Shown here: positions 16,009-30,019 of the stretch, in pieces | Layout of the letters: each line of letters starts with the position of its first letter | Position numbering within the stretch: position 1 is the first letter of the stretch | Assembly: GCA_040752415.1 (NCBI GenBank) | Contig: JBFMGU010000100.1 | Location: 1-36,001, forward strand | Origin: Myxococcota bacterium | GTDB lineage: Bacteria > Myxococcota > JACRCW01 | Length of the DNA: 36,001 nucleotides | Direction: 5' to 3' | Notes under the pieces: model-generated | What the model was told of the DNA's origin: nothing | Database searches by the model: none | What the model saw: only the letters and a program-made list of their open reading frames with translations | Translations under genes and position numbers: made by a program

Positions 16009-16662
16009 TCAGCCGCGCGTCAGCAACGCCACCACGTCCGGGTGTCCCTTCTCCCTGGCCAGGTCCGCGGCAGTGCTCCCGTTGTCGGCCTGCAGCGACG
16101 CATCCGCGCCGTGGCGCAACAGCAGGCGAACCCCCTCGACGTCGCCGTGCAGGGCGCGCGCTTGCAGCGGAGTCCATCCGGCTTGCTGTCGGGCGTTGAC
16201 GTTGGCGCCGGCTTTCAGCAGCACCTCCATCACCGCGCGGTGTCCCGCGGAGGCGGCGCTGTGCAGCGGTTGCACCTGCATGGGATTGCGCGCCACGGCG
16301 TGGACGTCCGCACCGTGCTGGAGGAGCACCTCCGCAACCGCCGCACGACCAAAAAACGCGGCGAAGTGCAACGCCGTGAACCCGTCGGGTGAGACGGCCT
16401 TCACCAGCGACGCGTCCTTCCCGACGAGACTGGCGACCCGCGCGGTGTTGCCGAGTGCGGTGGCCTCGAAGACGTCCAGGTCACCACCCGCGGCGAGGAT
16501 GTCCGCCAACTCCCGCTTGCCGTGGTACATCGCGCTCATCACCAGCGACACCCCGGACGCATCGCGCGCCCTCGACAGCGACGGGTCCCTGGTCACCAGG
16601 TCCCTGAGCTTCCCCGCATCTCCCGCCGTGATGGCCTCCAGCGCCGCGGCAACCTCTCCCAT
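16009..16662 (-). CDS. ankyrin-repeat protein
   Basis: DGFTALHFAA, QPLHSAASAGH, GWTPLQ and GADV/GANVNA repeats; GGAGG RBS. Confidence 0.92.
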   Translation of the reverse strand: MGEVAAALEAITAGDAGKLRDLVTRDPSLSRARDASGVSLVMSAMYHGKRELADILAAGGDLDVFEATALGNTARVASLVGKDASLVKAVSPDGFTALHFAAFFGRAAVAEVLLQHGADVHAVARNPMQVQPLHSAASAGHRAVMEVLLKAGANVNARQQAGWTPLQARALHGDVEGVRLLLRHGADASLQADNGSTAADLAREKGHPDVVALLTRG

Positions 16663-16674
16663 GTCTTCCTCCAG

Positions 16675-16695
16675 ATCGTTAGCCATGCTAATGAT
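16675..16695. promoter_or_regulatory. inverted repeat, probable MarR operator
   Basis: ATCgTTAGC-CAT-GCTAAtGAT in the 39-bp gap between the divergent ankyrin and marR genes. Confidence 0.6.
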
Positions 16696-16701
16696 TACGG
16701 G

Positions 16702-17154
16702 GTGACCGCGCGTTCCACAAGCCGCAAGCCATTCCCGCCGCGGGAGATTGCGGACCGGTTGCACTCGGTTTCCATCCGGTTGCTGCGCTGGCTCCGTCGG
16801 GTGGACGCGGCGGCGGGGGTAGGGCCGGCGCGTCTCTCCGCGCTGAGCGTGCTGACCTTTGGTGGTCCCATGACGCTGGGGCAGCTCGCGGCCGCGGAGC
16901 AGGTGAAGCCGCCGACGATGACGCGCGTGGTGCACGGCCTGGAAGCGGAGGGTTTGGCGCAACGCATCCCGGATCCCGCCGACGGCCGTGTGGTGCGCGT
17001 GGCGGCCACCGCGGCGGGGAAGCGCCTGCTGCAGCAGGGACGTCGACGTCGCGTGGAGGTGTTGAACCGCCGCGTGAAGGAACTGCCCGCCGCGGAGCTG
17101 GCCACGCTGGAGCGTGCGGTGGAGATCCTGGAGCGCATGACGCGGGGCGGCTGA
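16702..17154 (+). CDS. MarR family transcriptional regulator
   Basis: GTG start; MTLGQLAAAEQVKPPTMTRVVHGLEAEGL...DPADGR winged HTH. Confidence 0.9.
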   Translation: MTARSTSRKPFPPREIADRLHSVSIRLLRWLRRVDAAAGVGPARLSALSVLTFGGPMTLGQLAAAEQVKPPTMTRVVHGLEAEGLAQRIPDPADGRVVRVAATAAGKRLLQQGRRRRVEVLNRRVKELPAAELATLERAVEILERMTRGG

Positions 17155-17348
17155 CGTCCTGGACCACGTTCGCGTCCAGCGCGGACGGGACGGTGGCTCA
17201 GCAACGGGCCAGACCAGGGATCACGAGGTCAAGGCGAAACGTCGCCGCCCCGTGAACGTGACGTCCTCGTCGAGGATTCAGGTTGCGCGCTGCCGCGTCC
17301 CGGCATCCCGGTTACCTCCAGCCACAACATTCTCGTCGGAGCTTGGCC

Positions 17349-18005
17349 ATGAAGGTGGTGCTCGGGATCGTGGTGTTGGTGCTGGTGATCGCGGGTGCGG
17401 TGGCGGTGGTCGACGCGCAGGGAACCTGGGGGCCCGGGAATCTGCACAACCAGCTCCAGGGCGTGGACCCCGTGGGACCCCAGGATGCCGAGGAGTCGCC
17501 CCGCCCCGTGACGCCGCAACTCAGCGCGGAGCCACCCGTTCCGGGTCCCACCAGGAACCTGCCTGGCGTTGACCGTCGGTTCCTGACGCGCGCCATCACC
17601 CAGAGCGACCGCGTGGAAGCGCTCAGCCGGATGATGCTCGACCACGACGTCAGCAATGAGGTGAAAGGCCTGGCGCAGAGCGTGATGGAGAGTCACATGC
17701 TGATCGGCGGGCGGTTGCGCACCATCGCGTCCCAGGGACGTGTCCCGCTCCGTGAGCCCGTCCTGCCGACGCCGGAGATGAAGCGCCTCGCGCGGCTCCA
17801 GGGTGAACGCCTGGAGCGTGAGTACCTCGAGACGGTGATCCGGGCACATCGTCGGGCCGCGGCCAGCTTCCAGCGACACATCACAGCCGCGCGGGATCCC
17901 GACGTGCGCCACGTGGCGGCCATGTCGCTGCCCATCCTGCAGACGAACCTGAGCGAGGCGATCCGACTGCGCAACCAGGTCCGTCGGGAGGGCGCGGGTG
18001 GGTGA
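17349..18005 (+). CDS. DUF4142-like (ferritin-like) secreted protein
   Basis: Signal peptide; DRRFLTRA, EVKGLAQSVMESH, YLETVIRAH and LPILQTNL pattern. Confidence 0.7.
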   Translation: MKVVLGIVVLVLVIAGAVAVVDAQGTWGPGNLHNQLQGVDPVGPQDAEESPRPVTPQLSAEPPVPGPTRNLPGVDRRFLTRAITQSDRVEALSRMMLDHDVSNEVKGLAQSVMESHMLIGGRLRTIASQGRVPLREPVLPTPEMKRLARLQGERLEREYLETVIRAHRRAAASFQRHITAARDPDVRHVAAMSLPILQTNLSEAIRLRNQVRREGAGG

Positions 18006-18314: not shown

Positions 18315-18362
18315 TTTGGTCACGAACCGGTAGTGCCTTCCCTGAAAACCACGGGTCACGAC

Positions 18363-19118
18363 ATGGCTGACAACGACATCGTCTTCATCACGGGTGCAAC
18401 CTCAGGCTTCGGTGAGGCGTGCGCGCGGGCCTTTGCCGCACAGGGCGCCCGCTTGGTGCTCACCGGTCGACGAGAGGAACGCCTGCGCGCCCTGAAAGCG
18501 GAGCTGAAGACGCAGGTCCACACCGTGGTGCTGGACGTGCGCGACAACGCCGCGGTGGAGCGCGCGGTGAAGGACCTCCCGCGGGAATTCTCCGACGTCA
18601 CCATCCTGCTCAACAACGCCGGCCTGGCACTGGGATTGGGGCCCGCGCACAAGGTGAGCCTGCAGGACTGGGAGACCATGGTGGACACCAACATCAAGGG
18701 TGTCCTCTACGTCACGCGCGCGTTGCTGCCCGGCATGGTGGAGCGCAACCGCGGTCACATCATCAACCTGGGCAGCGTGGCGGGGACGTATCCCTATCCC
18801 GGCGGCAACGTGTATGGCGCCACCAAGGCGTTCCTGCACCAGTTCACCATGAACCTGAAGGCCGACCTCGTCGGGACGCGCGTGCGCGTGACCACCATCG
18901 AGCCGGGAATGGCTGAGACGGAGTTCTCCCTGGTGCGCTTTGGTGGCGACGCGGAGAAGGCGAGGGCCGTCTACCAGGGCATGCAGCCGCTCACGCCGCA
19001 GGACATTGCCGACGCCGTGCTGTGGTGCGCGACGCGGCCCGCGCACGTGAACATCAACGCCATCGAGATCATGCCGGTGGCCCAGGGCTTCAGTCCCTTT
19101 GCCGTGCATCGCGGTTGA
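18363..19118 (+). CDS. NADP-dependent SDR, YdfG-like
   Basis: ITGATSGFG, NNAGLALG, YPGGNVYGATK, IEPGMAETEFSLVRF and PAHVNIN. Confidence 0.9.
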   Translation: MADNDIVFITGATSGFGEACARAFAAQGARLVLTGRREERLRALKAELKTQVHTVVLDVRDNAAVERAVKDLPREFSDVTILLNNAGLALGLGPAHKVSLQDWETMVDTNIKGVLYVTRALLPGMVERNRGHIINLGSVAGTYPYPGGNVYGATKAFLHQFTMNLKADLVGTRVRVTTIEPGMAETEFSLVRFGGDAEKARAVYQGMQPLTPQDIADAVLWCATRPAHVNINAIEIMPVAQGFSPFAVHRG

Positions 19119-19158
19119 CGCTCCGCGCGCCTTGGCGGTCGTTGTGAGCCACCTTCTG

Positions 19159-19200
19159 ACTCCTGACTTCCTTGTGGGGTTTCCCCGACAATCCAGGAGT
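19159..19200. terminator. hairpin between the convergent SDR and radical SAM genes
   Basis: ACTCCTG...TTGT-GGGG-TTT-CCCC-G-ACAA...CAGGAGT; GAAA loop on the minus strand directly after the rSAM stop; no clear U-tract. Confidence 0.4.
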
Positions 19201-19203
19201 TGT

Positions 19204-20568
19204 TCAGGCAATGACGTGGAGACGCTTGCGTGAAGGTCGCTCCGACGGGTCGACGGTGCAGTCGGCCCACGGATCCGGCTCGTTCAACGTCCTCCCCGCG
19301 CCCGTGGCCCGCGCCCGACACCCGCCGCCGCAGACCGTGAAGTTCTCGCAGGAGCCGCACTGGTCATTGCCGGTGAACGTGCGCCAGGAGCGGATGGTCG
19401 GCGCCTCACGCCAGCACGACGTGAACGAGTGGGCGTGCAGCGACCAATCCTGCGGATCCAGCACGAAACCACAGGAGACCACGCGCCCGTCGTACATCAC
19501 GGAAGCGCTGGTGGTGCCGCCCACGCAGCCGAACGGCGGAATGATCCCCGCCCACTCCGGCGTGCGCGTGGGGATTCCGTCACCCCATTGCGCGGGTGGA
19601 CCGTCGGACGGCCACGCGGCCTTGGCGCGCTCCATGGCCCGCAGGTAGCTGAGCCGGTCAATGTAGAGCCCGTCCGCGTGCTGCGCTGCGCCCGTCTCCG
19701 TCTGGCGGAACGGCTTGAACGCCACGCGCGTGACGCCGAGCTCGCGTCCTAGCGTCGCATAGTCGCCCAGCCGGTCCGCGTTTCCCGACGTCACGGTGAC
19801 GCGGAACTGCACATCCTTCGCACCCGCCGCACGCAACAGCCGGATGCCACGCAGCGCCTGCTCGAAGCGGCCCGCACCGCGGATGGTGTCGTGGGTTGGA
19901 GCGTCGGGGCCATCCAACGAGATGGAGTATTCCCGGATGGGTGAGGCCGCCAGGCGCGCCGCGTTCTCCTCGGTGATGAGCGTGCCGTTGGTGCACAGCG
20001 ACGCATCCAGCCCATGGCGGCCCACACCCGCGACGAGCTCCCAGAAGTCGCGACGCAACATCGGCTCACCGCCCGCCAGCACCACGACGGGAGAGCCCAA
20101 GGTCTCCAGCTCGGCGAACAGGGAGAGCATCTGCGCGGTGCTCAGCTCATGCGGGTCGGGCTTGGGCGTGATGTCGACGAAGCAGTGGGTGCAGCGCAGG
20201 TTGCAGGCGCGCGTGAGCTGGATGTGCGTGATGAGCGGGCCGGTGAGCGCGGCGTGGGAGCCGTTGTGGTGCAACACGCGGGCGTGACAGCGGAATCCCT
20301 CGTCGAGCATGCCGTCGTGCAGCAGGCCTTCGATGTCGCGGATGAGCGTCTCCTCGTCCACGTCGTAGCCCTTGGGGTCACGGGCGTAGGCCTCCAGCGC
20401 GTTCCCACGCGTGGCGTCGAGAAGCAGGCGGGTCAGGTGGGGCGGGAGGAGGGCAAAGCGAGCGGTGCGACGGTGGTAGTAGAGGGAGCCGAAGTGCTCG
20501 ATGCGGAGCAGGTCCCCCGGTTGCGCGGCACTCTCCGACGACAGAATCGGGGACGCCGCGGCCACCAT
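19204..20568 (-). CDS. radical SAM/SPASM enzyme with fused N-terminal RRE (MftB/PqqD-like) domain
   Basis: CNLRCTHC (CX3CX2C), GGEP, LCTNG and SISLDG; SPASM CVGG...DGRVVSC and CGSCENFTVCGGGCRA...DPWADC. N-terminal LRIEHFGSLYYH resembles the MftB motif LRPEPFGALLYH. Start overlaps the upstream stop (TGATG). Confidence 0.92.
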   Translation of the reverse strand: MVAAASPILSSESAAQPGDLLRIEHFGSLYYHRRTARFALLPPHLTRLLLDATRGNALEAYARDPKGYDVDEETLIRDIEGLLHDGMLDEGFRCHARVLHHNGSHAALTGPLITHIQLTRACNLRCTHCFVDITPKPDPHELSTAQMLSLFAELETLGSPVVVLAGGEPMLRRDFWELVAGVGRHGLDASLCTNGTLITEENAARLAASPIREYSISLDGPDAPTHDTIRGAGRFEQALRGIRLLRAAGAKDVQFRVTVTSGNADRLGDYATLGRELGVTRVAFKPFRQTETGAAQHADGLYIDRLSYLRAMERAKAAWPSDGPPAQWGDGIPTRTPEWAGIIPPFGCVGGTTSASVMYDGRVVSCGFVLDPQDWSLHAHSFTSCWREAPTIRSWRTFTGNDQCGSCENFTVCGGGCRARATGAGRTLNEPDPWADCTVDPSERPSRKRLHVIA

Positions 20569-21113
20569 CACCCGCAACCACCGCTGGAGCGGCTGTAGCT
20601 GGGCGCGGGACGCGGCTTGGCGTCCTCGATCTGCTGGCGCGCGCCCTTGAGGGCCTCCTGCGCCAGCGTGCCGGCCAGGTCGTCGGCGGGCTTGGCCAGC
20701 GCGGCCTTCTCCTCCTTCTCGGAGATGACGCCGTCCTTGCCTTTGGTGCCGTCGGCCTTGTGCGTGTCAAAGCCGGCCACGCGCTTCTTGGCCTCCATCA
20801 GCGCCTCGCGCACGTTCTTGACCTCACCCTTCTTCAGCAGCTCCGGCTCGACGGTGCGTGTGGCTGAGTAGCCGCTGCAGCCACTGCTCACCCAGTAGGA
20901 CTCGGTGCGGGAGAACTCGTCCTTCACCGCTTCCAGGGCCTTGGTGGTCCCCACGTCCTTGCCCTTCACCTCCGCGGTGACGTCGAGCCGGCGCTCCAGC
21001 TCATCAACCGAGACCTGCCCTTTGTCGTCGACGGCCTTCTCCAGCGCCTTGTCCAGGCGGTCCAGGCTCTTCTCGAGGTTCTGGGGCGTGATCTTCCCAC
21101 CAATGCGCGTCAT
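20568..21113 (-). CDS. putative radical SAM substrate/precursor protein with two SYxxSSG(G)C motifs
   Basis: 181 aa, Lys/Glu-rich and helical, GGAG RBS, GC3-rich codons. Motifs ESYWVSSGCSGYS (internal) and PSYSRSSGGCG (C-terminus). Coupled to the rSAM gene. Confidence 0.75.
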   Translation of the reverse strand: MTRIGGKITPQNLEKSLDRLDKALEKAVDDKGQVSVDELERRLDVTAEVKGKDVGTTKALEAVKDEFSRTESYWVSSGCSGYSATRTVEPELLKKGEVKNVREALMEAKKRVAGFDTHKADGTKGKDGVISEKEEKAALAKPADDLAGTLAQEALKGARQQIEDAKPRPAPSYSRSSGGCG

Positions 21114-21195
21114 CTGAGGGCTCCAGGCAAGGCCCGCACGGGGCCGGACCGTCGTCGACTAGCCCACGGAAAAACGGATGGCAAAGCGCGGCGCG

Positions 21196-22266
21196 TCAAG
21201 GCCGGTAGAACCAGATGTTGGCGCCCCGACCCACGGCCCACGCGCCGCCTGGCTGGTGCGCCCAGACGCCACGCAGGTCCTCGTCGGAGGGCGAGATGAT
21301 GTCGCTCCATTCCCCGCCGTTGAAATGCACCACCCGCCCGTACTCGCCCACCGCCCACACGTCATTCACCGCGGTGCCGTCGACGTCGTGGAGGCGGTAG
21401 GTGGTGCCGGGCGGCGTCACCGTGCTCCACGCGCTGCCGTCCCAGTGGCGCAGCGTGCCGTCGCCGCCCGCGGCCCACACGTCGGCGTCGCTGGTGCCCC
21501 ACGCGTCCCACATCTCCACGTCGTCGACGCCGGCGGAACGATCCTGCCACCCGGACCCATCCTGGAACCACGCCACGCGATCACCGACGACCCACACGCT
21601 GCCCGCCGGGGAAACCCACAGCCCGCGCAGGTGCGCCGTGCCGGGGACGCCGCCGGGATTCCACGTCGTGCCGTGGCCGCGGAGGCTCAGTCCGTTGGAG
21701 CCGACGATCCACACGTCATCACGCGTCACGGCGCGCACGCGGTAGAGATCGCGCGTGTCCACCTCGGTGAGCGTGGTGTCGGTGCCGTTCCAGTGCGCCA
21801 CCTTCCCGCCAATGCCCACGGCCCACACGTCGTCGGAGGCGGTGCCGTGCACGTCAAAGAGCAGCGCCGGGACCAGGTCCACCACCTGCCACTGGCGTCC
21901 GTCGTAGCGAACCAGGTGACCCATCTCGCTCACCGTCCACGCCTCATTCGCGGTGCGGCCCCAGATCGCGTTCAGGCGACCCGAGCCCGTGGGTTGCTGG
22001 GTGCGGCACCAGGAGCGACGGTCACAGATGACCTGCGGTCCGTTGTCGTCGGGAGCAATGCCCGCGTCGGTGCCGGGGAGGAAGGGGAGGGTGGGCGCAT
22101 TGCCCGGCGTGGGCAGCGCGGGGTTGATGGGCTCACACACTCCTGACTGGCAGGCGTAGCCCGGCAGACAATCAAGCTGCGTGCGACACGCGTAGCGCTC
22201 CGTCAGATTGAACAGGCACCCCGCGAGCGCACCCACGCCGACGACGAAGAGCAGGCGCCTCCTCAT
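21196..22266 (-). CDS. lipoprotein with small Cys-rich module and beta-propeller (repeated W-G/DVWAVG blades)
   Basis: Lipobox LAGC; CRTQLDCLPGYACQSGVC; repeats such as DVHGTASDDVWAVG and AWGTSDADVWAAG. Confidence 0.8.
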   Translation of the reverse strand: MRRRLLFVVGVGALAGCLFNLTERYACRTQLDCLPGYACQSGVCEPINPALPTPGNAPTLPFLPGTDAGIAPDDNGPQVICDRRSWCRTQQPTGSGRLNAIWGRTANEAWTVSEMGHLVRYDGRQWQVVDLVPALLFDVHGTASDDVWAVGIGGKVAHWNGTDTTLTEVDTRDLYRVRAVTRDDVWIVGSNGLSLRGHGTTWNPGGVPGTAHLRGLWVSPAGSVWVVGDRVAWFQDGSGWQDRSAGVDDVEMWDAWGTSDADVWAAGGDGTLRHWDGSAWSTVTPPGTTYRLHDVDGTAVNDVWAVGEYGRVVHFNGGEWSDIISPSDEDLRGVWAHQPGGAWAVGRGANIWFYRP

Positions 22267-23078
22267 GGCAACACCCACGAGAGCACCATGAGCACCACCG
22301 GCGGGACGATCAACACCACCGCCAGCCCCAATCCCAACACCACCGACGCCACCACCACGTTCGCCACGAAGGCCTGCGTCTGCGTCACCGCGTGCACGCC
22401 GTTGCGCGTGTTCACCAGGTCATAGGCCAGCAGGCCCACCGCGGCGGTGCCCAACGCCGCCGACGTCACCAGGCCCAGGATCGGCGGAGCCACGCCCAAC
22501 ACGCCCAGGCCGCGCAGCGTTCCGCGGGCACCCGTCTTCCACCCCGGTTCGCCCGCGGACTCGTCGGAGCGCGGGGCAGCAGATGGTGGTGGCGTCGTCA
22601 CCGGGCTGGAGCCCAGCAGCTCTTCGGCAATCCCGGGCATGGCGCGCAGCAGCTCCTCCGGCGTGCCGTGCGGAAACTCGCGCTGGATGCGTTTGAGCGC
22701 GTGTGCATCCCGTGACCGGACCCGCGAGAGCGTGACGACGTAGGAATCACCCACACGCCCCACGTTCCCGACGACGATCTGGTCGGCTGCCAGCGCCCCG
22801 GCAATCTCCAACGCGCAACTCTCGGTGCTGCATCCCGCGGCTTGACGTTGCTGCTCCAGCGTGAGCGCGGCGCTGACCTCGCTGACGGCCTGCACCGTGA
22901 AGTCGGCGTGGCGGCTGGCGGCAATGGCCAGTGCGCCGGTGAGCTGCTCGGCAAGATCCGGGGTGACGTTGCCCCGCGCCTCGAGCGGGAAGATCAACAC
23001 CGAAGCGGGCCGCGACGCCGCGCCGGCGTTGAGCGCGAGCATGACCGGGGTGAGGGCGAGGACGACGACGGGTGACAT
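22263..23078 (-). CDS. exported protein with TolB-N/CsgG-like alpha/beta domain and C-terminal TM helices
   Basis: Signal peptide; GCSTESCALEIAGALAADQIVVGNVGRVGDSYVVTLSRV; two hydrophobic C-terminal segments; ATGA overlap with the next gene. Confidence 0.6.
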   Translation of the reverse strand: MSPVVVLALTPVMLALNAGAASRPASVLIFPLEARGNVTPDLAEQLTGALAIAASRHADFTVQAVSEVSAALTLEQQRQAAGCSTESCALEIAGALAADQIVVGNVGRVGDSYVVTLSRVRSRDAHALKRIQREFPHGTPEELLRAMPGIAEELLGSSPVTTPPPSAAPRSDESAGEPGWKTGARGTLRGLGVLGVAPPILGLVTSAALGTAAVGLLAYDLVNTRNGVHAVTQTQAFVANVVVASVVLGLGLAVVLIVPPVVLMVLSWVLP

Positions 23079-23176
23079 GGCGATTTTCGCGCAACGATGG
23101 CGCGCAGCCTAGCACCCGATTCCCCGCGCGGGGACGTGGATTGGCGCGCGTGATGGCTCTCCGCTAAGGTGACGGC

Positions 23177-23545
23177 ATGCTCCGCGCCTTGGCGGTCCTG
23201 GTGATGGCCCTGATGTCGGTTCCCGCGCTCGCGGGCCCGGCGTGGCAGTGCCTTTGCGAGGGCGCGCCGGTGGCGTGGGAACCCTGCTGCTGCGACCACG
23301 ACGAGCCCGCGGACCCCACCATCTCCGACGGCTGCTGCTGCGAGATCCAACAAGGCGCTCCAGACACCTCGCAGTCGCCTGCCACGTTCGAGCGAACCAC
23401 GGTGTCGCCCGTCTGGTATCCGGCCACCGAGCCCCGCGTGATCGTGACCGCCGCGCCGGTCCAGGATGGTCGACCGGTGATCCTGCGTGACACCGGGCCA
23501 CCACCACCCACGCAGTTCCTGAGCACCGTCAAGCTGCGTCCCTAG
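23177..23545 (+). CDS. small Cys-rich protein upstream of the metal-efflux operon (DUF2946-like leader candidate)
   Basis: Hydrophobic N-terminus, CLC, CCCDH and GCCC clusters, C-terminal RDTGPPPP. Confidence 0.65.
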   Translation: MLRALAVLVMALMSVPALAGPAWQCLCEGAPVAWEPCCCDHDEPADPTISDGCCCEIQQGAPDTSQSPATFERTTVSPVWYPATEPRVIVTAAPVQDGRPVILRDTGPPPPTQFLSTVKLRP

Positions 23546-23610: not shown

Positions 23611-24969
23611 ATGTATCGATCGTTGAGCCTGGCAGCGCTGCTGCTGGCGGCGGAGCCTCCGTCGTCGGCGGGTGGGCTGTCCTTCACCGACGCGCGTGAA
23701 CGTGCGCGTCAAACCCATCCCGCCATCCTCTCCTCACGCCTGGCCGCGCAGGCGGCGCGTGAACGCGTGAACGGAACCGGAGCCTGGGACGACCCCGTCG
23801 TGGGAGCGCAGCTCTGGCAGATCCCATTGGACAACGTGGAGAACGCGCTGGTGCCTGGCCTCACGCCGGCGCAACGCGCCACCACCGTCGCCATGGGGCC
23901 GTCCATGGTCAACGTCATGCTCATGGCACAGCAGACCTTCCCGTGGCCGGGCAAGCGCTTCGCGCAACGGAATGAGGCCGGCGCGTTGGCGGAGCAGGCT
24001 GCAGCGTCAACGGAGGTGATGCGCGCCGACGTGGACCGCGCCGTGGCGTACGCGTACGGCGACCTCATTGCCGCGCAAGGGTCCATTGCCGTGCTGGAGC
24101 AGGACCGCACCGTGCTGGAGACGCTGGTGGCCCTCTCCGACTCTCGCCTGGCGAGCGGCAGCGGCAGTCGCGTGGATGCGTTGGCGGCGCGCGCGGAGCT
24201 GGAGGGGCTGCAGCGTGAGCTGATTGACGTGCGACAAGCGGTCCGCACCGCCAAGGCGCGCCTGGCCGCGCTCATCGGCGCCGATGGCCCCGACGCCGTT
24301 CCCGACGCTGCACACACCTTCCTGATCCGTCCGTTGCCTCCGCGCGAGGAGCTGCTGGCCAGGGCGCTGACGCAGCGACCCGAGTCGCGCATTGCCGCGG
24401 CGGGTGTGCGGGCCGCGTTGGCGCGTCTCTCCCAGGCCCGCATGGCCATGATTCCCGACGTCACCGCCAACGTCTCGTACATGATCGGCGTGGGCGGACC
24501 CGGCGACTACGCGAAGCACGGAGCGGTGCACACCATCCTGGGCCCGCCCGACATGGTCACCGTGGGGGTGGCGGTTCCGCTGCCGGTGCTGGCGCCGTGG
24601 AAGCAGATGCCGCAGGCGGATGCCGCGCGTGTCGAGCACAAGCGTGCGCAGGCCGAGGCCGACGCGATTGCGCGCACCGTGCAGGCGGAGGTGGACCAGG
24701 CGCTCGCGGGTGTCGACATGGCACGCAGTCACCTGGAGCTGCATTCCACGCGGCTCATCCCGCTGGATATCGCGGGCGTCGACGCGGCGCGCGCGGCCTA
24801 TGAGTCCGGACAGGGAAGCCTGGTGGATCTCGTCGTGGCGGGGCGTTCCCTGCGGGGGCATCACCTGGAGAGCCAGACCGCACTGCTGCAGTACGCGCGC
24901 TACGTGGCCGACCTGGAGCGTGCCACCGGCGTACCCCTCAACGCTTTTGGAGAAGGAGGCACGCCATGA
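23611..24969 (+). CDS. cusC: TolC-family outer membrane factor (CusC/CzcC-like)
   Basis: QQTFPWPGKR, RPE, PDV and AAYESGQGSLVDLV OEP motifs; first gene of the CBA operon. Confidence 0.8.
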   Translation: MYRSLSLAALLLAAEPPSSAGGLSFTDARERARQTHPAILSSRLAAQAARERVNGTGAWDDPVVGAQLWQIPLDNVENALVPGLTPAQRATTVAMGPSMVNVMLMAQQTFPWPGKRFAQRNEAGALAEQAAASTEVMRADVDRAVAYAYGDLIAAQGSIAVLEQDRTVLETLVALSDSRLASGSGSRVDALAARAELEGLQRELIDVRQAVRTAKARLAALIGADGPDAVPDAAHTFLIRPLPPREELLARALTQRPESRIAAAGVRAALARLSQARMAMIPDVTANVSYMIGVGGPGDYAKHGAVHTILGPPDMVTVGVAVPLPVLAPWKQMPQADAARVEHKRAQAEADAIARTVQAEVDQALAGVDMARSHLELHSTRLIPLDIAGVDAARAAYESGQGSLVDLVVAGRSLRGHHLESQTALLQYARYVADLERATGVPLNAFGEGGTP

Positions 24970-26477
24970 CCACGCACGACGTTCATCACCCCGATGCCAT
25001 GCCCGAGGGCGAGGAGCCACCTCCTCCCGGCGTGAAGATCATGGCCGTGGTGCGCTGGGTGCTGATCCTGGCGCTGGGTGCGCTGGCGGTTCACGTCGTC
25101 ATGGACGCGGTGCGGGAGCACGGTTCCGTCGAGAAGGCGGAGCACAAGACGCGTTACACCTGTCCCATGCACCCGCAGGTCATCTCCGACCGTCCCGGAG
25201 AGTGTCCCATCTGCGGCATGGATCTCGTTCCGCTCGAGGAGAAGCCCAAGGTGGAGGAGGCGGAGCTCTACCAGTGCCCCATGCATCCGCAGGTCACCTC
25301 GAATCGTCCCGGAGAGTGTCCCATCTGCGGCATGGACCTCGTGAAGGTGGAGAAGGCCGCGGGCAAGGCGCACGGTGAAACGGCGGTACCGGGTTTGTCG
25401 ACGGTGACCATCCCGCTGGAGCGCGTGCAACGCATTGGCGTGCGCTCCGCGCCGGCCCAGGTGGCGACGCTGTCCGAGACGGTGCGCACGGTAGGCGTGG
25501 TGGCCACGAATGAGGCGAAGACGGCGCAGGTGCATGCCCGCTACTCCGGTTGGATCGAGGAGCTGCTGGTGCGTGAGACCGGTGCACGCGTGGAGGCCGG
25601 TGAGCCGCTGGCGCGCATCTACAGCCCGGAGGTGCTGCAGGCGCAGCAGGAATACGTCACTGCGCTGCAGGCCAATCCCAACGACCCTCTCTCGGGCCAC
25701 CTGGTGTCCGCGGCTCAACAACGTCTCAAGCTGCTCGGCCTCCCCACCGACGATCTCGAGACGTTGGAGCGCGACAAAAGGCCGCAACGCACCATCACCA
25801 TCCGCGCGCCCATGGCCGGTTACGTGACACAGAAGGGCGCGGTGGAGGGTCTGTATCTCTCGCCGGGAACTCCGTTGTTCGAGATCGCGGATCTCTCGTC
25901 GGTGTGGATGCTCATTGACGTGCGTGAGGACCAGATGGCGCGCGTGCAGGTGGGGCAGAAGGCCAGCGTGGAGATTCCCGCGCTGCCGGGCCAGCGGTTC
26001 GAGGGGAAGCTCACCTTCCTCTATCCGGCCGTGGACCCGCGGACCCGCACGCTGCGTGCCCGGGTGGAGATGCCCAATCCTCGTCGACAGCTTCGACCCG
26101 GCATGTACGGCGACGTGAACATCACGCTCCCGCCGGCCAAGGGCGTGGTGGTGCCCGCGGAGTCGGTGGTGCAGACCGGTCGGCAGGCGTACGCGTTCAT
26201 CTCCCACGGAGATGGCGTGTTCGAGCCGCGCCTGGTGACGTTGGGCGTGCGCACCCCGGATACCGTGCAGGTCCTCTCCGGCGTCGAGCCCGACGAGGAG
26301 GTGGTGACCAGCGCCATCTTCCTCATTGACTCGGAGAGCCGCCTGCGCGCCGCGATCAACGGAAGCCCGGTGGGTGGAGCGCACGCGGGTCATGGTGGTC
26401 ACGAGGGACACGCCGAGTCGCAGCCGTCGTCGCAACCGTCGTCGCAGCCGGCGCACCAGCACGGGGGGACGCCATGA
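24966..26477 (+). CDS. cusB: CusB-like periplasmic adaptor with two YxCPMHP heavy-metal-binding domains and His-rich termini
   Basis: YTCPMHP...CPICGMDL occurs twice; GWIEEL, IYSPE, DPRTRT, LRPGMY and FLIDSES. Confidence 0.9.
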   Translation: MTTHDVHHPDAMPEGEEPPPPGVKIMAVVRWVLILALGALAVHVVMDAVREHGSVEKAEHKTRYTCPMHPQVISDRPGECPICGMDLVPLEEKPKVEEAELYQCPMHPQVTSNRPGECPICGMDLVKVEKAAGKAHGETAVPGLSTVTIPLERVQRIGVRSAPAQVATLSETVRTVGVVATNEAKTAQVHARYSGWIEELLVRETGARVEAGEPLARIYSPEVLQAQQEYVTALQANPNDPLSGHLVSAAQQRLKLLGLPTDDLETLERDKRPQRTITIRAPMAGYVTQKGAVEGLYLSPGTPLFEIADLSSVWMLIDVREDQMARVQVGQKASVEIPALPGQRFEGKLTFLYPAVDPRTRTLRARVEMPNPRRQLRPGMYGDVNITLPPAKGVVVPAESVVQTGRQAYAFISHGDGVFEPRLVTLGVRTPDTVQVLSGVEPDEEVVTSAIFLIDSESRLRAAINGSPVGGAHAGHGGHEGHAESQPSSQPSSQPAHQHGGTP

Positions 26478-29400
26478 TCGGCGCGCTCATCGAGCTGTCG
26501 GCACGGCACCGCGGCTTCGTGCTGTTGGCGACGATCTTCCTGTCCGCGGCGTCGTGGTGGGCCGTGCGCACGGTGCCGTTGGACGCGGTGCCCGACCTGT
26601 CCGACCCGCAGGTGATCGTCTTCACGGAGTGGATGGGACGGAGCCCGGATCTCGTCGAGGACCAGGTCACCTACCCCATCTCCTCCGCGTTGCTGGCGGC
26701 ACCCCGCGTGACGGACGTGCGCGGCTACTCCATGTTCGGCATGAGCTTCATCTACGTGCTGTTCGAGGAGGGCACCGACGTCTACTGGGCGCGCAGTCGC
26801 GTGATGGAATACCTCTCCACGCTGCGCGGCCGACTCCCGGAAGGCGTCACGCCCACGCTGGGCCCCGACGCCACCGGCATTGGCTGGGTGTTCCAGTACG
26901 CGCTCACCGACACCACCGGCCAGCGTGACCTCAGCGACCTGCGCGCATTCCAGGACTTCTCCCTCCGCTACGCGCTGGCCTCGGTGCCGGGGGTGGCCGA
27001 GGTGGCCACCGTGGGCGGGTATGAACGGCAGTTCCAGGTCGTCGTCGACCCCAACCGGCTGCCCTCCTACGGCGTGACGCTGGCGGACGTGGCTCGCGCG
27101 GTGCGGCGCTCCAACGCCGACGTGGGCGGTCGCGTGCTGGAGATGACCGGGCGTGAGTACTTCATCCGCGGCCGCGGCTACGTGCAGGACCTGGACGACC
27201 TGCGCAACATCGTCCTGCGCACCACGGAGACCGGCACACCGCTCCTCCTGGGCGACGTGGCGGAGGTGCGCTTCGGCCCGGAGATCCGCCGCGGCGTGGC
27301 CGAGCTCAATGGCGACGGAGAAACCGTGGGTGGCGTGGTGGTGGCGCGCTACGGGGAGAACGCGCTCGCCATCATCGAGCGGGTGAAGCAGAAGATCGAG
27401 GAGCTGAAACCCTCGCTTCCGCCCGGCGTGGAGATCCAGGTGGTCTACGACCGCTCCGACCTCATCCACCGCGCCATCGACACGCTCAAGGACGCCCTGG
27501 CGGAAGAAGTGCTCGTGGTGGCGCTGGTCATCTTCCTCTTCCTGTTGCACCTGCGCTCGTCGCTGATTCCCATCATCATGCTGCCCATCGCGGTAGCCGC
27601 ATCCTTCATCCCCATGCGGCTGCTGGGCATCAGCTCCAACATCATGAGCCTCGGTGGCATCGCCATTGCCATCGGCGCCATGGTCGACGCGGCGATTGTT
27701 CTCGTCGAGAACGCGCACAAGCACCTGGAGCACATGAAGCCGGGGGAAGACCGCAATGAGGTGCTCATCCGGGCGGCGCGTGAGGTGGGACCCTCCATCT
27801 TCTTCTCGCTGCTGATCATGACGGTGGCGTTCTTCCCCATCTTCACGCTCGAAGGGCAGGCGGGCCGGTTGTTCATCCCGCTCGCGTTCACCAAGACGTC
27901 CGCCATGGGTTTCGCGGCGGTGCTCAGTGTGACGCTGGTGCCGGCGCTGATGGCTTTCTTCGTGCGTGGGCACATCCGCAGTGAGGCGGAACATCCCGTC
28001 AGCAAGCTGCTCATTGGCGTGTACAAGCCGTTCGTCTTCGTGGCGCTGCGCAACCCCAAGACCACCATTGCCATGGGCGTGTTCGCTGTGATCAGCGCGG
28101 TGCCCATTGCATTCAAGCTCGGCAGCGAGTTCATGCCTCCGCTCGACGAGGGGGACATCCTCTACATGCCCACCACGCTGCCCAACATCTCCATTGAGGA
28201 AGCCAAGAAGGAGCTGCAGCGCCAGGACCGCATCCTGCGCGACTTCCCCGAGGTGGTCAGCGTGTTCGGGAAGGTGGGACGCGCGGAGAGCGCCACGGAC
28301 CCCGCGCCGTTGTCCATGGTGGAGACGGTGGCGCGCCTCAAACCGCGCAGCGAGTGGCGCAGCGTGACGGAGACGCGCTGGTACTCGTCGTGGGCGCCGG
28401 ACTGGGCGCGGGAAAGGCTGGGGCGCGTCTGGCCGGAGACGCGGCCGGTCACGTTTGATGAGCTCACCGACCAGATGAACGAGGCCATGCGCTTCCCGGG
28501 TTGGACCAACGCGTGGACCATGCCCATCAAGGCGCGCGTGGACATGCTCACCACCGGGGTGCGGACGCCCGTCGGCGTGAAGGTGCTCGGTCCGTCGCTG
28601 GACGAGGTGGAGAAGGTGGGCGTGGCGCTGGAAGGCGTGCTGGCGCAGGTGCCCGGCACCCGCAGCGTCCTCTATGAGCGCAACCAGGGCGGCCTCTACA
28701 TCGACATCATTCCCGACCGCGCTGCCATGGCCCGTTATGGGCTCACCGTGCAGGACGTGCATGACGTCGTGGAAGCGGCCATTGGCGGTCAGCCCATCAG
28801 CACCACCGTGCAGGGGCGTTCCCGCTTCTCCATCAACGTCCGCTTCCCGCGCGACCTGCGAAACAACCTGGAGGCCATCCGCCAGGTGCTCATTCCCATT
28901 GGCGGTGGCGCCGGTGACGAGGGTGGCATGGGCATGGGCAGGACCGGCAGCGTCGAGGATTTCTCCGCGCCACGCCCGGTGATGCTGGCGCAGGCCATGA
29001 ACATGGGCACCCCCTCCAGCCCGTCCATGGGGCCTTCACCGCGACTGGACCTGTTGCCGCGCATGGACACGGGAATGCCCGTTCCGTCGGGCGGCATGGG
29101 TGGCGCGGGGGTCATGTCTTCGCCACGTGGCATGGCGGGTGCGGGGATGGGTGGAACGTCGTCAAACATGGCGGCACCAGGGCCGCAGGCTCCGGCTCCC
29201 GCGGCGGGGCAGGGCTTCGTCCCGTTGGGCCAGGTTGCCAGCGTCGACATCGTGGAAGGGCCGCCGATGATCCGCAGCGAGGCCGGTCTGCTCGCGGGCT
29301 ACGTGTACATCGACGTCGACACCTCCAAGCGCGACGTGGGCGGTTACGTGAACGACGCCAAGGCCGCGGTGGCGCGCGCGCAGTCCGAGGGAAAGCTGGG

Positions 29401-30019
29401 CATTCCGCCGGGCACGTACCTGCGCTGGACCGGTCAGTACGAGCTTATGCAGAAGATGAAGGAGCGCATGGAGATCGTGGTGCCGCTGACGCTGCTCCTG
29501 GTGCTCCTGCTGCTGGTGCTCAACTTCCGCAACGTCACCGAGGCCATCATCGTTCTGCTCAGCGTGCCGTTCTCGCTCGTGGGCAGCATCTGGATCCTCT
29601 ACCTGCTGGACTACCGCCTCTCGACCGCGGTGTGGGTCGGCGTCATCGCGCTCGTCGGGCTCGCGGCGGAGACGGGGATCGTGATGATCGTCTACCTGGA
29701 CGCGGCCTATGAGCGACGCAAGCGCGCGGGCAAGATCCGCGACCTCAACGACATCATCTGGGCGCACATGGAGGGCACGGTGCAGCGCGTGCGTCCCAAG
29801 CTTATGACGGTGGCAACCATGCTCTTTGGCCTGGTACCGCTCTTGTGGGCGCAGGGCTCCGGTGCCGACGTCATGAAGCGCATTGCCGCGCCCATGGTGG
29901 GCGGCTTGCTCAGCAGCGCGTTCCTCACGCTGGAGATCATCCCGGTGGTCTACACCTATTGGCGCCTGGCCCAGCTCCGACGGGAGAACCGCGCGGCTCA
30001 GAGCTCGTCGGCAACCTGA
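26474..30019 (+). CDS. cusA: CusA-like Cu(I)/Ag(I) RND efflux permease with Met/Gly/Pro-rich insertion
   Basis: DAVPDLSD.QVI, GPDATGIGWVFQY, NIMSLGGIAIAIGAMVDAAIV, Met-triad contexts LYMPTT / PLSMVET / VDMLTTG, and RVRPKLMT. Confidence 0.93.
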   Translation: MIGALIELSARHRGFVLLATIFLSAASWWAVRTVPLDAVPDLSDPQVIVFTEWMGRSPDLVEDQVTYPISSALLAAPRVTDVRGYSMFGMSFIYVLFEEGTDVYWARSRVMEYLSTLRGRLPEGVTPTLGPDATGIGWVFQYALTDTTGQRDLSDLRAFQDFSLRYALASVPGVAEVATVGGYERQFQVVVDPNRLPSYGVTLADVARAVRRSNADVGGRVLEMTGREYFIRGRGYVQDLDDLRNIVLRTTETGTPLLLGDVAEVRFGPEIRRGVAELNGDGETVGGVVVARYGENALAIIERVKQKIEELKPSLPPGVEIQVVYDRSDLIHRAIDTLKDALAEEVLVVALVIFLFLLHLRSSLIPIIMLPIAVAASFIPMRLLGISSNIMSLGGIAIAIGAMVDAAIVLVENAHKHLEHMKPGEDRNEVLIRAAREVGPSIFFSLLIMTVAFFPIFTLEGQAGRLFIPLAFTKTSAMGFAAVLSVTLVPALMAFFVRGHIRSEAEHPVSKLLIGVYKPFVFVALRNPKTTIAMGVFAVISAVPIAFKLGSEFMPPLDEGDILYMPTTLPNISIEEAKKELQRQDRILRDFPEVVSVFGKVGRAESATDPAPLSMVETVARLKPRSEWRSVTETRWYSSWAPDWARERLGRVWPETRPVTFDELTDQMNEAMRFPGWTNAWTMPIKARVDMLTTGVRTPVGVKVLGPSLDEVEKVGVALEGVLAQVPGTRSVLYERNQGGLYIDIIPDRAAMARYGLTVQDVHDVVEAAIGGQPISTTVQGRSRFSINVRFPRDLRNNLEAIRQVLIPIGGGAGDEGGMGMGRTGSVEDFSAPRPVMLAQAMNMGTPSSPSMGPSPRLDLLPRMDTGMPVPSGGMGGAGVMSSPRGMAGAGMGGTSSNMAAPGPQAPAPAAGQGFVPLGQVASVDIVEGPPMIRSEAGLLAGYVYIDVDTSKRDVGGYVNDAKAAVARAQSEGKLGIPPGTYLRWTGQYELMQKMKERMEIVVPLTLLLVLLLLVLNFRNVTEAIIVLLSVPFSLVGSIWILYLLDYRLSTAVWVGVIALVGLAAETGIVMIVYLDAAYERRKRAGKIRDLNDIIWAHMEGTVQRVRPKLMTVATMLFGLVPLLWAQGSGADVMKRIAAPMVGGLLSSAFLTLEIIPVVYTYWRLAQLRRENRAAQSSSAT

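Follow-up and report, generated by a model that had tools for sequence, protein, structure and literature searches.

Radical S-adenosylmethionine (SAM) enzymes with a SPASM domain are best known for the tailoring of short peptides. To our knowledge, the modification of whole proteins by such enzymes is limited to a few cases, QhpC and CrpA (2026). QhpC, a small subunit with many Cys, is the gamma subunit of quinohemoprotein amine dehydrogenase, a periplasmic enzyme, and carries a Trp-derived quinone as well; QhpD is its radical SAM-SPASM maturase. The present work concerns a two-gene cassette in a stretch of 36,001 nucleotides (nt) from a Myxococcota bacterium (contig JBFMGU010000100.1 of assembly GCA_040752415.1), which is referred to as a whole as the window. 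One gene encodes a protein of 181 amino acids (aa) and the other a radical SAM-SPASM enzyme with a predicted RRE, the recognition element for peptides that are made on the ribosome and modified after translation (RiPPs). The evidence leans towards the 181-aa protein being a substrate that the enzyme modifies at Cys motifs, one at the tip of a predicted hairpin and the other at the C-terminal end.

Precedents for this reading are the thioethers that SPASM radical SAM enzymes introduce into whole proteins, QhpD into QhpC and CrpC into CrpA (available text of PMC13692751). In the first system, as described in the same text, a SPASM radical SAM enzyme bearing an RRE acts on a protein in which Cys is the reactive residue (Cys-to-Asp/Glu thioethers), and the product stays in the protein. 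In comparison with QhpC and QhpD, the protein of the window has two isolated Cys, an EF-hand-like fold and no conserved Trp, and no genes of the corresponding dehydrogenase were seen nearby.

The second system, CrpA and CrpC of Methanococcus voltae (protein ranthionine crosslinks, 2026), is similar in that the enzyme, a SPASM radical SAM protein for which an RRE is predicted, acts on a neighbouring whole protein at Cys motifs; the N-terminus of CrpA is thought, from a model, to engage the RRE (both points from the available text of PMC13692751). As far as that text describes it, CrpA is a Cys-rich protein of 28.8 kDa with many repeated motifs and a predicted beta-helix, whereas here 2 Cys are found in 181 residues of a helical, EF-hand-like protein. 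The high Cys content and the many repeated Cys motifs of the CrpA type are absent from the 181-aa protein.

The sactipeptide and ranthipeptide systems (SkfB, CteB, PapB and StsB) share with this locus the combination of RRE, radical SAM and SPASM domains and Cys as the likely reactive residue, and SkfB and CteB are among the best matches of the enzyme. On the contrary, the putative substrate is here a folded protein of 181-334 aa with its invariant site inside the fold, no protease or exporter is conserved, and the scores of StsB and PapB are under the cut-offs. The short leader-core precursor that is released or exported is likewise not what was found, as the members are folded and no third conserved gene stands beside the pair.

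In the case of MftA/MftC (mycofactocin) and PqqA/PqqE (PQQ), the enzymes MftC and PqqE can be aligned along almost all of the catalytic and SPASM region, and MftC modifies its substrate at the very C-terminal end, as one of the two sites here would demand. The locus differs from them in having neither a GVY nor an E-x3-Y motif, in its Cys target, in the internal position of its main site, and in the lack of conserved peptidase or pathway genes. The proteins of PMC12452194, as presented in the available part of that source, combine a RiPP-like small-residue Cys motif (E-G-K-C-G) and EF-hand Ca2+-binding units in one protein. They differ, by the same part of the source, in the multinuclear non-haem iron enzyme involved, in a transmembrane helix or signal peptide and in an unstructured Cys domain placed before two EF-hands. 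The protein of the window is instead cytoplasmic and has its Cys on a hairpin within the EF-hand-like domain, and no DUF692 gene was present among the neighbours scanned.

Protein-scale modification by radical SAM-SPASM enzymes is thus known in principle (QhpD/QhpC, CrpC/CrpA), and no curated family covers either protein of this pair. In the literature, no description of the family was found within a coverage that leaves out most subscription journals.

The enzyme, its small partner gene and their coupling

The features of the cassette are listed below by position in the window, with (-) for the minus strand. A2 and A3 are the alignments of the small protein family and of the enzyme family, respectively.

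19204..20568 (-), enzyme gene, 454 aa; 457 aa if translation begins at an alternative TTG at 20577
19258..19527 (-), SPASM domain with C348, C366, C404, C407, C413, C417 and C437, including Cx2Cx5Cx3C
20182..20205 (-), CxxxCxxC radical SAM motif (C122/C126/C129), invariant in 55/55 sequences of A3
20317..20511 (-), RRE-like N-terminal domain, enzyme residues 20-84, three strands followed by three helices in the AlphaFold2 model
20568..21113 (-), putative substrate gene, 181 aa, stop codon TGA at 20568-20570
20571..20600 (-), C-terminal core motif SYSRSSGGCG, residues 172-181, with the Cys180 codon at 20574-20576
20712..20768 (-), loop 2, residues 116-134, an EF-hand loop in which position 3 is His and seven residues (119-125) are inserted
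20850..20909 (-), predicted beta-hairpin with the internal core motif, residues 69-88, Gly78-Cys79 at the tip; block-mean pLDDT 95-97 over residues 61-90
20877..20879 (-), codon of Cys79, the invariant internal site, Cys in 30/30 sequences of A2
20997..21032 (-), loop 1, residues 28-39, a non-canonical EF-hand-like partner loop, x-A-D-G-S-V-D in relatives
21084..21113 (-), predicted unstructured N-terminal segment, residues 1-10, mean pLDDT 73, M-P-x-x-K-P-x-F-P in relatives
21121..21124 (-), GGAG resembling a ribosome-binding site, 7 nt before the ATG of the putative substrate gene, read from the sequence

The two genes are joined by a one-base overlap of the TGA of the putative substrate gene with the ATG of the enzyme gene (TGATG). 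The small open reading frame (ORF) has a GC content at third codon positions of 0.91 against 0.69 for the whole window, which supports a real gene. Lys, Ala, Glu and Gly are abundant in its product, which lacks the hydrophobic stretch that a signal peptide would have at the N-terminus and belongs to no family of Pfam or NCBIfam. A promoter and terminator scan of 18900-23400 gave no match.

The enzyme had been labelled an RRE-bearing radical SAM protein by the first-pass annotation, and this label is supported by the beta3-alpha3 domain, the CxxxCxxC motif, the SPASM Cys and a full-length match to SuiB. Pfam assigns it to Radical_SAM (E 1.6e-26), with no match to PqqD. In A3, which contains 55 sequences of the enzyme family and follows the numbering of the 454-aa protein, the seven SPASM Cys are invariant or at least 90% conserved, a number in line with the seven or eight Cys of SPASM domains that hold two auxiliary clusters. 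The AlphaFold2 model (pLDDT 92.0, pTM 0.90) places the RRE-like elements E20-24, E27-32, E37-41, H43-52, H57-68 and H72-84 ahead of the radical SAM barrel, with block-mean pLDDT of 95-98 from residue 21. SuiB chains head the Foldseek results of this model (E ~2e-19, TM 0.70-0.75, ~460 columns), followed by SkfB, PqqE, CteB and anSME. The A3 profile searched against the PDB gives the same proteins (PqqE 1.4e-34, SkfB 1.3e-26 and SuiB 2.8e-25, then CteB and anSME), and its alignment to SuiB starts at position 13 (SuiB residue 25), thus including the N-terminal domain. The best structural matches of the enzyme are modifiers of peptides or proteins.

Within NCBIfam, every match of the enzyme is below the curated cut-off and no curated family is reached. 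In detail, the scores in bits are 180.6 for AhbD (TIGR04545, cut-off 500, core only), 157.6 for MftC (TIGR03962, cut-off 265, full length), 127.2 for StsB (NF045574, cut-off 625), 81.1 for PqqE (TIGR02109, cut-off 381), 61.4 for PapB (NF047865, cut-off 340) and 61.3 for QhpD (TIGR03906, cut-off 453). The enzyme family comprises 61 proteins at E<=1e-40, and a jump from 1.7e-93 to 6.8e-41 shows that it is well delimited. Its members are named only "radical SAM protein" and come from metagenome-assembled genomes of Deltaproteobacteria, Myxococcota, Planctomycetota and Pseudomonadota.

A sample of 401 genomes of the phylum was searched with the A2 profile, which matched 15 of them. In ten genomes the match includes the N-terminal domain of the family (G000, G002 with three copies, G003, G030, G034 with two copies, G037, G072, G142, G150 and G233), and in the other five (G135, G138, G196, G348 and G361) only the C-terminal region of the long members is matched. 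Enzyme orthologues (E<=1e-60) occur in 10 of the 401 genomes, and these are the same ten that have the N-terminal domain. The enzyme gene lies within the fetched flanks of 12 of the 13 loci with this domain. Of the 13 places where the enzyme was found, 11 adjoin the small gene, one (G142) is split by a contig end and one (G003:C203) stands alone. This last copy is located 44 nt downstream of a gene for a WD40-repeat protein of 937 aa, possibly another substrate or else unrelated.

The small gene usually precedes the enzyme gene, the two overlapping or lying a few bases apart; a divergent order is found in the subgroup with an extra N-terminal domain (G003:C28 and G002:C37). When 12 loci, with flanks mostly of 8-9 kb, were compared by a crude ORF caller and all-against-all BLAST, the only families common to at least three loci were the small protein and the enzyme. 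No conserved protease, exporter or further tailoring enzyme was detected among these 12 loci. As a negative control, 80 loci of distant radical SAM relatives (mostly ~30% identical and not orthologues) were inspected, and the small protein family was present at none of them. The genes are thus strictly coupled, by occurrence in the same 10 of 401 genomes, by proximity at 12 of 13 loci and by the TGATG overlap, and the dedicated enzyme partner that the first reading of the DNA had assumed for the 181-aa protein is supported at the level of the genes.

Two cysteine sites on a predicted EF-hand-like fold

When 1.84 billion cluster representatives were searched exhaustively with phmmer, 32 proteins were found at E<=1e-3; for 7 of these E is 1e-10 or lower, and for 2 it is 1e-30 or lower. 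A word-indexed search found a single relative, P0002 (308 aa, 39% identical). Relatives are annotated as "hypothetical protein", and family members have 162-334 aa. The first alignment (A1) contains 34 sequences. A2 retains 30 of them, after the removal of P0011 (a fragment truncated at its N-terminus), P0021 (a Cys-free repeat protein, probably a false match), P0022 (with a diverging C-terminus) and P0030 (without the internal Cys). The family is small, at about 30 representatives that are related to one another.

The translation of the window places Cys79 and Cys180, Tyr73, Tyr82 and Tyr173, and Trp74 all within residues 72-83 (20865-20900) or 172-181 (20571-20600), exactly as had been noticed from the sequence alone. 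Conservation separates these residues. Cys79 is present in 30/30 sequences of A2, with Gly before it in 24/30 and after it in 25/30, and the internal site is kept in 30 of the 33 relatives. A terminal Cys, either the last residue or followed by 1-2 residues, is found in 28/30 of A2 and in 28/33 of all relatives, the A2 members that lack it being P0005 and P0007. The Cys motifs of the first-pass annotation are therefore conserved in homologues, in accordance with the two modification-type sites per protein that it proposed, and both sites are centred on Cys and preceded by a shared motif. On the contrary, its inclusion of Tyr and Trp in the core did not survive the comparison. Tyr is entirely missing from P0003, the closest relative (61% identical), and the residues at positions 73, 74 and 82 differ across the family. 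Tyr/Trp crosslinks are not supported because these residues are not conserved.

The consensus of the internal site is R(-6/-5) V(-4) S/T(-3) S/G(-2) G(-1) C G(+1) G(+2) and that of the terminal site is R(-5) S/V(-4) S/T(-3) S/G(-2) G/S(-1) C, so that R-x-V/S-S/T-S/G-G-C is common to both. The five residues preceding the two Cys have a mean BLOSUM62 score of 5.5, against -3.86 (sd 0.85) for random 5-mers of the same proteins, and none of 2000 resamplings reaches 5.5; this comparison is inflated by the kinship of the members and by the Ser/Gly-rich composition. In the window, the sites read V-S-S-G-C-S-G-Y (internal) and S-S-G-G-C-G (terminal), where the family consensus is G-C-G-G. The Cys content is 2 in the 181 residues of this protein and 1-4 in the relatives.

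All members share an N-terminal domain of ~150 residues. This is followed by almost nothing in the short form (162-183 aa, including the protein of the window), by an extra helical region of ~150 residues in the long form (~305-334 aa), or, in P0004, P0006, P0008 and the fragment P0011, by a repeat of the entire domain that has a G-G-C hairpin motif of its own. Each form ends in a short linker and then the terminal S/G-G-C. As a result, the terminal Cys lies anywhere between ~15 and ~170 residues away from the domain across the family, and the number of motif Cys is 2 in most members, 3 in the duplicated forms (P0004, P0006 and P0008) and 1 in the copy of G030. This last copy has the internal site only, because its gene ends 4 nt ahead of the enzyme gene.

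Several subgroups deserve description in their own right. The one nearest to the protein of the window (P0004, P0006, P0008 and P0011) has an expanded loop, D-T-H-K-A-D-G-x-K-G-K-D-G. Its tandem-duplicated members combine two internal G-G-C sites with the terminal one, and their second copy is without an EF-hand loop. Members at L036 and L037 (G002:C37 and G003:C28) carry an additional helical domain of ~95-110 residues before the shared domain and end in V-G-T-S-C. The ~150-residue C-terminal region of the long members (profile positions ~150-290) stands alone in five genomes of the phylum, at the loci L019-L024 (G361:C838, G348:C41, G196:C26, G135:C7 and G138:C260), some of which have a stop inside the match. 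These five genomes are without the N-terminal Cys domain and have no enzyme orthologue at E<=1e-60. A Pfam scan of 30 members gave no family for this region.

The AlphaFold2 model of the 181-aa protein, built with A2, has a mean pLDDT of 93.2 and a pTM of 0.83. Its elements are H10-27, H36-50, H54-66, E69-77, E80-88, H95-113, H132-140 and H146-165, followed by a less confident C-terminal tail (mean pLDDT 67-75). The hairpin that had been expected around the internal motif, with Cys near its tip, is reproduced by strands 69-77 and 80-88, in which G78-C79 forms the turn. Both Cys are likely to be exposed and are flanked by small residues. The N-terminal segment that precedes the first helix conforms in relatives to M-P-x-x-K-P-x-F-P (A2 consensus, with Pro at position 2 in 22/30 and at position 3 in 23/30) and is a candidate recognition element for the RRE.

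In the PDB, no match of this model was found by Foldseek at E<=1e-3; ribosomal protein S7, which occupied the top rows at TM 0.15-0.19, was taken as noise. The highest Z from VIA-align was 5.7; EF-hand domains scored 5.2 (polycystin-2), 4.4 and 3.9, a range that is common for helical proteins, and FCaBP was weakly similar to the model at TM 0.35. In the ESM Atlas, the best feature score was 0.81 (NolX/type III effector clusters), a level reached by shuffled proteins a third of the time, and EF-hand clusters scored 0.76-0.78 with structure matches of TM<=0.40; none of these was used. Judged from the model, the fold appears EF-hand-like at best and otherwise has no clear match in the PDB.

The two loops noted from the sequence alone, DDKGQVSVDEL (residues 29-39) and KGKDGVISEKE (residues 124-134), are present in the translation. 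As to their EF-hand character, loop 1 keeps G32 in 28/30, V34 in 26/30 and D35 in 20/30 of A2, and EF positions 1, 3 and 12 are missing in the whole family. Loop 2 keeps D116 in 27/30, N/D118 in 20/30, D127 in 26/30, G128 in 23/30, and I/L/V130 and E134 in 30/30. Its insertion occurs in 7/30, a subgroup with His at position 3 to which the protein of the window belongs. The canonical EF-hand loop has 12 residues, D-x-[DN]-x-[DNS]-G-x-[ILV]-x-x-x-E, between two helices. According to a permissive 12-residue pattern of our own, loop 2 is canonical in 20/33 relatives; the protein of the window does not match this pattern, though it keeps D116, D127, G128, I130 and E134, and its helices flanking the loop (H95-113 and H132-140) are present in the model. 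Pfam EF-hand_6, EF-hand_5 and EF-hand_1 match 10, 9 and 9 of 30 relatives, respectively (best E 2.3e-5), and the protein of the window is unmatched by EF-hand_1, EF-hand_5, EF-hand_6 or EF-hand_7 even at E<=1.

The EF-hand-like character thus holds for the family, with its 20/33 canonical loops, and only weakly for the protein of the window, which has the insertion and no Pfam match. Bridge residues in the DSSP assignment of the model (28 and 34-35 in loop 1; 118, 124 and 130 in loop 2) are consistent with a pairing of the two loops as in an EF-hand lobe. To judge from the loop sequences, Ca2+ responsiveness is plausible for the relatives with a canonical loop and doubtful for the protein of the window.

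The internal duplication of scaffold plus core that was also suspected is only weakly supported. The two helix-loop-helix units give a weak match (hhalign of residues 12-43 against 97-139, probability 49.6%, E 1.7e-4, 32 columns), whereas the Cys motifs remain unaligned; moreover, loop 2 and the terminal Cys are ~150 residues apart in the long relatives. A true tandem duplication of the whole domain is seen only in other members, namely P0004, P0006 and P0008. Similarly, the idea of a folded leader suits the C-terminal site only, because the invariant site lies within the fold.

Proposed chemistry at the cysteine motifs and the competing explanations

Taken separately, the role of the 181-aa protein as substrate of the enzyme is very probable and that of the Cys motifs as modification sites is probable, whereas a thioether as product is a tentative assignment, with somewhat less than an even chance. 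The substrate would be a cytoplasmic helical domain of two helix-loop-helix units, forming an EF-hand-like pair, with the hairpin inserted between them. The hairpin would present the invariant Gly-Cys at its tip, and a flexible tail would end in the second motif, R-x-V/S-S/T-S/G-G-Cys. The RRE of the enzyme would bind this substrate, possibly through the N-terminal M-P-x-x-K-P-x-F-P, and each S-G-C motif would enter the active site in turn and be modified by radical chemistry. The likeliest product would be a thioether of the sactionine or ranthionine type, formed from the Cys sulfur. It is favoured because no reactive residue other than Cys is invariant and because Cys-directed SPASM enzymes mostly make thioethers.

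The modified protein would then remain intact, since the cassette is without a protease or exporter. A modified protein rather than a released peptide is indicated by the invariant site inside a confident fold, by the second site at the end of a tail of variable length, by the lack of a cleavage or export gene and by the RRE of the enzyme.

Several observations weigh against this explanation. A paralogue of the small gene, G034:C24, has no enzyme gene (tblastn of 1.5-kb flanks, and no ORF of the radical SAM family within +/-9 kb), and an enzyme paralogue, G003:C203 (42% identical; L119, 2921-4312 (+)), has no detectable small gene within ~3 kb. The terminal Cys is missing in 2 of the 9 genome-derived copies listed (G030 and G034:C16), and near both sites no candidate acceptor residue is invariant. 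The top NCBIfam matches of the enzyme are those of tetrapyrrole enzymes (AhbD) and of MftC, and not of thioether synthases. In QhpC and in ranthipeptides, Cys comes before the acceptor. The same order is given for CrpA, whose Cys precede the putative acceptors (available text of PMC13692751), whereas the terminal Cys has here only 0-2 residues after it. With nothing following that Cys, the acceptor must be upstream or in another segment. As the two sites share only the residues before Cys and the terminal one has nothing downstream, the chemistry must take place at the Cys itself or draw on an upstream residue or on a residue in a different segment, which may be the other site.

A more speculative extension of this reading is rather unlikely. 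In it, the Gly-Cys of the hairpin tip and the Cys of the tail would be turned into a crosslink or cofactor derived from the protein itself and seated on an EF-hand scaffold, as an undescribed class of radical SAM chemistry at the protein level. The product would take the form either of a tail stapled to the hairpin or of a reactive Cys-derived group. Binding of Ca2+ by the neighbouring loop would control either the modification or what the finished protein does, and the fold would be one without a solved counterpart.

A change of the Cys itself, by formylglycine-type oxidation or in another way, is a serious rival of the thioether, although as a complete explanation it is unlikely. The enzyme would act like anSME, by epimerisation or, at the terminal site only, by an oxidative decarboxylation like that of MftC, and both the hairpin tip and the tail would end up with a reactive, protein-derived group. 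The common pre-Cys residues and the bare terminal site agree with this as well, anSME is among the structural and profile matches, and MftC, whose target is the final residue of its peptide, ranks second among the NCBIfam matches and aligns at full length (157.6 bits). A protein-derived group formed in situ would also fit the lack of a conserved protease or exporter. However, the sulfatase motif C/S-x-P/A-x-R is missing, the site of the window reading S-G-C-S-G-Y; anSME is not known to have an RRE, which the enzyme here possesses; and the MftC score lies under its cut-off of 265, decarboxylation being in addition impossible at an internal site.

It is less probable still that the 181-aa protein is a partner of the enzyme, such as a carrier or chaperone, with Cys on which a metal, Fe-S cluster, persulfide or acyl group is held for use or delivery by the enzyme. 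The likely exposed Cys between small residues and the strict pairing of the genes would suit such a role. By analogy, carrier proteins such as lipoyl and biotinyl domains and tails of the ThiS/MoaD type typically bear their reactive groups on hairpin tips and flexible C-termini. Against it, no third conserved gene is available as another substrate, the 1-3 isolated motif Cys follow no known pattern for a metal or cluster, and the enzyme has an RRE of its own, a domain known to bind peptide or protein substrates (available text of PMC13692751).

The weakest alternative, and a very improbable one, is an ordinary EF-hand-type Ca2+ protein whose Cys are joined in a structural disulfide or serve no particular function while the radical SAM enzyme acts elsewhere: the Pfam EF-hand matches of 9-10 of 30 relatives and the weak structural likeness to polycystin-2 (Z 5.2) and FCaBP (TM 0.35) favour it, but the co-occurrence in 10 of 10 genomes, the overlap of stop and start codons and the absence of the family from 80 other radical SAM loci do not. 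The simple disulfide in a known fold, which had been named from the outset as fatal to the idea of modification sites, was not encountered, since no known fold was recovered and a disulfide is unlikely in a protein that is cytoplasmic (without a signal peptide, hence in a reducing compartment), that has 1 or 3 motif Cys in some members and whose tail Cys lies ~15 to ~170 residues from the domain.

A glycyl-radical-like site at S-G-Y was also considered and rejected, as the Tyr is not conserved, the known R-V-x-G-Y is unmatched and the enzyme is of the SPASM and not of the activase type. Modification of the intact protein at its Cys motifs is retained as the explanation towards which the evidence leans.

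Surroundings and significance of the cassette

In the window, the cassette is surrounded by the following genes, (+) and (-) denoting the strand.

16009-16962 (-), ankyrin-repeat protein
16522-17154 (+), MarR-family regulator
17283-18005 (+), DUF4142 protein
18333-19118 (+), YdfG-like short-chain dehydrogenase, convergent with the enzyme gene
21196-22278 (-), 360-aa lipoprotein-like protein with repeated V-W-A-V-G-type motifs, upstream of the putative substrate gene on the same strand at a distance of 82 nt
22263-23078 (-), 271-aa protein with a hydrophobic C-terminus
23177-23545 (+), 122-aa protein with a signal-peptide-like start and the Cys clusters C-L-C and, twice, C-C-C; no Pfam family
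23611-30019 (+), Cus-like tripartite efflux operon, directly downstream of the 122-aa protein gene

The first four are ordinary neighbours. The 360-aa and 271-aa proteins have no match in Pfam or NCBIfam and are not kept beside the cassette in other genomes (12 loci). The efflux operon consists of genes for an OEP (23611-24969), a CusB/HlyD fusion protein with two HMBD repeats, which bind heavy metals (24966-26477), and a pump of the AcrB/CusA type (26474-30019), and the 122-aa protein may be its periplasmic metal-binding partner. A link of the cassette to these efflux genes was considered and set aside, as such neighbours are not common to the other loci.

The cassette is rare, occurring in 10 of the 401 sampled genomes of the phylum, and is unannotated. 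It would add a minimal two-gene example to the protein-modifying radical SAM-SPASM systems, with a confidently folded substrate of unmatched fold, a target at a hairpin tip and a C-terminal copy of the motif. With this pair, one can ask how an RRE-bearing enzyme handles a folded substrate and whether one active site serves an internal and a terminal motif. It also opens the question of protein-derived Cys crosslinks or cofactors that bacteria may form on Ca2+-binding scaffolds.

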